Shown piece by piece: positions 1-624 of a stretch of DNA of 624 nt. The DNA is from Escherichia coli. Its GTDB lineage: Bacteria; Pseudomonadota; Gammaproteobacteria; Enterobacterales; Enterobacteriaceae. The DNA lies in NCBI RefSeq assembly GCF_003334385.1, contig NZ_QOWN01000160.1. The stretch is one strand, 5' to 3'. The translations under genes and the position numbers were made by a program. Positions within the stretch are counted from its first letter, which is position 1. The number at the start of each line of letters is the position of its first letter. A model generated the notes under the pieces. It made no database searches. It saw only the letters and a list, made by a program, of their open reading frames with translations, and had not been told where the DNA came from.

Positions 1-80
1 ACTACCATCGGCGCTACGGCGTTTCACTTCTGAGTTCGGCATGGGGTCAGGTGGGACCACCGCGCTACTGCCGCCAGGCA
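1..80 (-). rRNA. rrf: 5S ribosomal RNA, 5' portion (nt 1-80 of ~120); truncated by the window's left edge
   Basis: The reverse complement of 1-80 is UGCCUGGCGGCAGUAGCGCGGUGGUCCCACCUGACCCCAUGCCGAACUCAGAAGUGAAACGCCGUAGCGCCGAUGGUAGU, which matches the enterobacterial 5S rRNA 5' two-thirds essentially base for base. The mature 5' end (UGCCUGGCGG) is at window position 80. Confidence 0.95.
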
Positions 81-173
81 AATTCTGTTTTATCAGACCG
101 CTTCTGCGTTCTGATTTAATCTGTATCAGGCTGAAAATCTTCTCTCAATCCGCCAAAACACCTTCGGCGTTGT
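81..173 (-). other. 23S-5S intergenic transcribed spacer (part of the 9S pre-5S precursor region); no tRNA present
   Basis: This is the interval between the 23S 3' end (174) and the 5S 5' end (80). In RNA sense it reads ACAACGCCGAAGGUGUUUUGGCGGAUUGAGAGAAGAUUUUCAGCCUGAUACAGAUUAAAUCAGAACGCAGAAGCGGUCUGAUAAAACAGAAUU, nearly identical to the E. coli rrn distal spacer as I recall it. It is too short for a tRNA and has no cloverleaf-compatible sequence. The boundaries rest on the inferred mature ends of the flanking rRNAs. Confidence 0.85.

Positions 174-624
<451 letters not shown>

Follow-up and report, generated by a model that had tools for sequence, protein, structure and literature searches.

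The 23S–5S rRNA spacer in a 624-nucleotide Escherichia coli rrn operon tail and its identity with the K-12 rrnA/rrnE haplotype

The 23S–5S internal transcribed spacer of this kind is an ordinary and long-known part of E. coli rrn operons. The sequences flanking 23S rRNA pair into a long stem that is cut by RNase III, leaving seven precursor nucleotides at the 5' end of 23S rRNA (PMC7261194, PMC6582327). RNase E then cuts the 5S precursor three nucleotides upstream of mature 5S rRNA, and the ends are trimmed to their final form by exonucleases (Jain 2020, PMC7261194; Iost et al. 2019, PMC6582327). On the variation of this spacer, PMC7682190 cites Anton et al. 1999. The closest described counterparts of the spacer reported here are those of rrnA and rrnE in K-12 MG1655 (NC_000913.3, 4040424-4040516 and 4212947-4213039), which are the same at 93 of 93 spacer positions and at 624 of 624 positions of the window (the whole stretch of DNA analysed, 624 nucleotides). 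The spacers of K-12 rrnB, rrnD and rrnG share its architecture, its 5S-proximal 66 nt and its stem partner in the 23S leader, but they are 92 rather than 93 nt long, have C instead of G at position 13, and carry one U instead of two at positions 26/27. Their predicted stem has a mismatch at position 13, where that of the window has a wobble pair, and over the whole window these three operons show 6-10 differences.

Anatomy of the operon tail

Read on its minus strand, the window is the tail of an rrn operon, with the 3' end of 23S rRNA at 624 to 174, the spacer at 173 to 81 and the start of 5S rRNA at 80 to 1. The 23S part comprises the 3'-terminal 451 nt (174..624, minus strand; Rfam RF02541, model positions 2480-2925, the last 446, 484.5 bits, E-value = 7.4e-158) and aligned with K-12 rrlA/rrlE with no mismatch. 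The 5S part comprises the first 80 nt (1..80, minus strand; Rfam RF00001 from 78 to 1, 56.6 bits, E-value = 3.4e-11), and the 5' U of mature 5S rRNA was set at window position 80 by the rrfE/rrlE annotation of NC_000913.3, in which 5S starts with UGCCUGGCGGC. The spacer between them (81..173, minus strand) has 93 nt according to both Rfam and the rrlE/rrfE annotation of NC_000913.3; the 23S–5S gap in the K-12 annotation is likewise 93 nt, with 23S, spacer and 5S on one strand. These bounds agree with the initial annotation, which had described a simple 93-nt spacer at 81-173 with no embedded tRNA, and no tRNA gene was detected in the spacer or elsewhere in the window (0 genes by ARAGORN; no match to a tRNA family by cmscan). 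Spacer position p corresponds to window position 174-p throughout.

Several elements were assigned within the spacer, all on the minus strand. Positions 1-33 (window 141..173) form the 3' strand of the predicted 23S processing stem, as judged by RNAcofold on the seven K-12 operons, the role of such a stem being taken from PMC7261194. This segment contains both sites that are central to the comparison below: G at spacer position 13 (window 161), which faces the invariant leader U(-14) in the cofold, and UU at spacer positions 26-27 (window 147..148), of which the extra U is paired with a leader A in the cofold; both sites were placed by alignment. A local hairpin, AUCAGAACGCAGAAGCGGUCUGAU, at spacer positions 59-82 (window 92..115) lies in the leader of the 5S precursor and is the sole element of the spacer stable in both the MFE and the centroid folds. 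Folded on its own, the full-length spacer reaches -30.9 kcal/mol, a value that is not significant against shuffled sequences (z = -1.75). From the position given in the literature, the RNase E cut is expected at window 83..84, three nucleotides upstream of mature 5S rRNA, and the corresponding context, ACAGA/AUU-UGCC, was found in the window ahead of 5S.

The locus thus has the 23S and 5S flanks, the tRNA-free organization and, by cofold prediction, the leader complementarity of the E. coli-type 23S–5S spacer. Window 81-173 is almost certainly the standard tRNA-free E. coli spacer, of the K-12 rrnA/rrnE haplotype and with the processing anatomy proposed here. No evidence contradicts the identification of the spacer, and the caveats touch only its mechanism.

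Spacer variation within K-12 and across E. coli

When all seven rrn operons of NC_000913.3 were aligned with the window over 624 columns, rrnA and rrnE, each with G at position 13, UU at 26/27 and a spacer of 93 nt, showed 0 differences. Two differences were found for rrnH (C at position 13, UU, 93 nt) and five for rrnC (A at position 13, one U, 92 nt), the spacer of which additionally has G at position 83. The operons rrnB, rrnG and rrnD, all with C at position 13, one U and a 92-nt spacer, differ from the window at 6, 7 and 10 positions, respectively. K-12 therefore possesses four spacer haplotypes across its seven operons, and the window has every mark of the rrnA/rrnE one: G13, UU at 26/27, A83, A at 5S position 12 and the GACUCCUUGAGAGUC hairpin in 23S. 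In a BLASTN search, the full window matched many E. coli genomes at 100%, such as K-12 MG1655, C600, J53 and ER1709; the MG1655 match (624/624) lies between purH and yjaA and has tRNA-Glu in the 16S–23S spacer, which identifies it as rrnE. In K-12, rrnA is followed by mobB and has tRNA-Ile and tRNA-Ala in its 16S–23S spacer, so that it can be told from rrnE by the latter spacer or by about 200 nt past the 3' end of 5S. By sequence, rrnA and rrnE of K-12 are inseparable from the window, and many other E. coli strains likewise match it at 100%.

The initial annotation had held that, compared with the K-12 spacer, this one has a single substitution and an extra U. The string that it gave for the window, GCCGAAGGTGTTTTGGCGGATTGAGAG, is present as given, and the one that it gave for K-12, GCCGAAGCTGTTTTGGCGGATGAGAG (or GCCGAAGCUGUUUUGGCGGAUGAGAG), does occur in K-12, but in only three of the seven copies, those of rrnB, rrnD and rrnG. 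Both changes are correct relative to those copies (C to G at window 161; the U at window 147/148), but not relative to K-12 as such, since rrnA and rrnE are identical to the window over all 624 bases. A BLASTN search with positions 60-200 against complete genomes, as the annotation had proposed, returned 100% matches in many E. coli genomes, K-12 MG1655 among them; perfect identity to a K-12 rrn spacer, which the annotation had itself named as speaking against its claim, was thus obtained. Judged from the aligned copies, the observed difference is heterogeneity between rrn copies inside K-12, real but intragenomic. Because the seven copies fall into four haplotypes, the premise of a single "K-12 spacer" was wrong. 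A false lead is hereby removed, the window being an exact copy of two K-12 operons and not a K-12 variant, and the case shows that a multi-copy locus needs to be compared with each copy in the reference.

The expectation that the spacer would be the most variable and informative part of the window was borne out. Among the seven K-12 copies, 3 of its 93 columns vary (3.2%), compared with 8 of 451 (1.8%) in the 23S part and 1 of 80 (1.25%) in 5S. The spacer alone splits the K-12 operons into {A,E}, {H}, {C} and {B,D,G}, and even the whole window leaves rrnA and rrnE unsplit. Two further copy-specific sites lie outside the spacer. At 5S position 12 (window 69), A is present in the window and in rrfA, rrfB and rrfE, and C in rrfC, rrfD, rrfG and rrfH. 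In a 23S hairpin near the 3' end (window 276-284, minus strand), the window and rrnA, rrnC, rrnE and rrnH have GACUCCUUGAGAGUC, and rrnB, rrnD and rrnG have GACCCUUUAAGGGUC. The two forms show four differences (alignment columns 341-349), one of which is a two-sided change from U-A to C-G, so that the stem of the 23S hairpin is kept; as read from the alignment, this is intragenomic compensatory variation within mature 23S rRNA.

The distribution of the four haplotypes was determined in 5,426 complete E. coli genomes, with about 37,987 spacer places in total, by means of 40-nt queries in which each 28-mer seed spans both variable sites, so that only the exact haplotype seeds a match. The haplotype of the window, G13+UU (rrnA and rrnE in K-12), was found in 4,530 copies in 1,717 of the 5,426 genomes (32%), at 1-7 copies each. 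C13+U (rrnB, rrnD and rrnG) accounted for 8,042 copies in 2,886 genomes, A13+U (rrnC) for 9,261 copies in 3,059 genomes, and C13+UU (rrnH) for 2,733 copies in 1,516 genomes. At about one third of the E. coli places, other spacer forms are present. Among them are divergent spacers (for example, those of AR_0089 rrnE, K56-43-un and SCU-122) that agree with the window in operon position, in the first 25 nt and in the last ~17 nt, but have the central or distal segment replaced (loci L009 308-450, L010 308-443 and L011 308-447); they are 96-102 nt long and 84-91% identical to the window over the 141-nt test stretch. For ~860 E. coli records, the window is matched best by a spacer of this divergent type. 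Diversity of the 23S–5S spacer in E. coli is reportedly the subject of an entire paper, that of Anton et al. 1999 (J Bacteriol 181:2703).

Within the collections searched, G13+UU was found only in E. coli, and on these sequences the haplotype points to that species (about a third of its complete genomes), and to rrnA or rrnE if the source is K-12. The suggestion that the spacer could identify the genus or the operon is therefore sustained for the former and not for the latter: given that rrnA equals rrnE and that the haplotype occurs in 1,717 genomes at 1-7 copies, the spacer names neither a single operon nor a strain.

Forty-one spacer matches were located on plasmids. In NZ_CP192746.1, a 9,690-bp plasmid described as "laboratory developed", the distal spacer and 5S are present with 98.8% identity to window 60-144 on the minus strand (positions 57-141 of the 60-200 query). 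This segment presumably resembles the 5S/terminator fragment of rrnB that common expression vectors carry, and that vector fragment may be the reason why the rrnB form is the one remembered.

The predicted processing stem and alternative readings of the spacer

Because the window does not include the leader strand of the stem, pairing was examined at the K-12 loci that are identical to it. Next to 23S, the leader (GAAACAUCUUCGGGUUGUGA) does not vary among the seven K-12 operons, and RNAcofold of leader and trailer gave the same long helix in each of them. In this helix, the proximal leader is the partner of spacer positions 1-5 and 7-19, and the upstream UUCGC and UCUCUCAA leader segments are the partners of positions 21-33. 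The rrnA/rrnE pairing is a continuous long helix with a predicted energy of -61 to -62.5 kcal/mol, and all haplotypes have a long stable predicted stem (-57 to -63 kcal/mol). Opposite leader U(-14), the cofold gives a U.G wobble for G at position 13, a U-A pair for A (rrnC) and a 1x1 mismatch for C (rrnB, rrnD, rrnG and rrnH). The extra U (window 147/148) is placed opposite the extra A of the leader segment CUCUCAA, by which the distal helix gains one pair. In isogenic predictions, G13 differs from C13 by about -4.1 kcal/mol and the extra U contributes about -1.3 kcal/mol, values that, like the stem itself, are thermodynamic predictions and not probing data. Both variable sites are, in this model, compatible with stem pairing. 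No compensatory leader change for position 13 or for the extra U was found across the seven K-12 operons; as the leader is invariant and the variation one-sided, these variants lend the stem no support by covariation.

From these predictions and the known processing pathway, the following course would apply to the locus. The spacer would be transcribed from the window minus strand within the 30S pre-rRNA, and its first ~33 nt would pair with the leader upstream of 23S rRNA into the long stem offered to RNase III. After the RNase III cut, the remainder of the spacer, including both variable sites, would be left as a leader at the 5' end of the 5S precursor and be removed by an RNase E cut between window positions 84 and 83, with exonucleases trimming the ends. 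Both G13 and the extra U would be discarded in processing, neither nucleotide being part of mature rRNA, and we infer that the spacer variants are functionally near-neutral.

Three other readings of the spacer were weighed against its identification as the standard E. coli spacer in its rrnA/rrnE form. The window could come from a relative of K-12 (a different strain, species or genus) in which the spacer has diverged by one substitution and one insertion. Exactly those two changes do separate it from K-12 rrnB, rrnD and rrnG, the G13+UU haplotype carries some lineage information, being missing from 68% of complete E. coli genomes, and many strains other than K-12 match the window at 100%, which leaves room for an origin outside K-12. 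However, K-12 itself possesses the exact 624-base sequence twice, in rrnA and rrnE, so that divergence is neither needed nor demonstrated, and this reading is considered highly improbable. Still less probable, to the point of being negligible, is that the spacer encodes a different product, either a small RNA resembling RAGATH-30 or a peptide on the opposite strand. The match of RAGATH-30 (RF03055) by cmscan at window 65-121 is weak (20.1 bits, E-value = 0.24); it falls far below the gathering score of 59.5 bits and overlaps the start of 5S, and it was rejected as a chance match. The 44-codon ATG ORF at 41-175 on the plus strand was called mechanically; it spans the spacer and the beginning of 5S, in antisense orientation to rRNA, and is regarded as fortuitous. 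Altogether, the plus strand contains only three short mechanical ORFs, and promoter-like or terminator-like sites were found on neither strand of the window; a coding or regulatory role of either strand was rejected on these grounds.

The remaining reading concerns not the identity of the spacer but the meaning of its variants, and supposes that operon-specific differences in the stem adjust how fast or in what order RNase III cleaves, and hence the output of particular rrn operons. Isogenic predictions put the haplotypes as much as ~5 kcal/mol apart in stem stability, and all four of them remain reasonably common in E. coli. If the reading were true, ribosome production would be subject to an additional, operon-specific layer of control, and selection, not drift and gene conversion, would maintain the spread of the four haplotypes. 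The G13+UU copy number, however, ranges from 1 to 7 per genome, which fits drift and gene conversion better than a fixed role of the operon, and every variant retains the long stable stem predicted above. Moreover, cells without RNase III still assemble functional ribosomes (PMC6582327), and selection on the fine details of the stem should therefore be weak. That a U.G, U-A or U/C combination at position 13, with or without the distal pair, could alter the speed at which pre-23S rRNA and the 5S precursor are released by RNase III is a slim prospect, and operon-specific tuning as a whole is regarded as very unlikely.

Spacers in other Enterobacteriaceae

A scan with a degenerate pattern, covering one genome per species (GTDB), recovered the stem-forming motif in Escherichia, Salmonella (arizonae and diarizonae), Citrobacter, Klebsiella, Phytobacter, Trabulsiella and Kosakonia. 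These spacers share with the window the 23S-proximal ~25 nt, ACAACGCCGAAG-N-UGUUUUGGCGGA, the presence of which is partly required by the scan pattern. Since the shared 25-mer is mostly demanded by that pattern, the result shows its presence and not its level of conservation; a further caveat is that rrn copies are often collapsed in draft genomes. At the U site, several genera show both length forms. The distal half of the spacer, in contrast, is unrelated to that of the window, or much longer. Position 13 is A in nearly all of the non-Escherichia rows and C in the E. coli representative and S. diarizonae, whereas G was found in no row of the species-representative alignment, and G13+UU was absent from the scanned representatives of other genera. 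Leaders were read for Klebsiella michiganensis and Phytobacter ursingii, and both have the same one as K-12, U(-14) included. On the basis of this alignment, U-A is likely the ancestral pair at position 13, and G13 is a pairing-preserving transition which, within these collections, is confined to E. coli.

Some of the genomes scanned showed unusual arrangements. In scaffold3.1 of Citrobacter amalonaticus S646, the motif occurs twice (10347-10372 and 10604-10629), 257 nt apart and each time after the last 20 nt of 23S; either a unit of 23S tail, spacer and 5S is duplicated in tandem here, or the arrangement is an artefact of assembly. In scaffold2.1 of the same genome (11030-11200), the place ~2.9 kb upstream of the spacer where the 23S leader is expected is taken by the 3' end of 16S, which suggests a collapsed or misjoined rrn operon in the draft; this row was left out of the leader comparison. 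In Salmonella arizonae and diarizonae, K. michiganensis, Phytobacter, Trabulsiella and one C. amalonaticus genome, the spacer extends for more than ~115 nt before any 5S; these longer spacers of Salmonella, Klebsiella, Phytobacter, Trabulsiella and Citrobacter run into a shared purine-rich segment, ...GCAAGGCGGCAAGCGAAGGAAAGGAAGGAGCAUAC...
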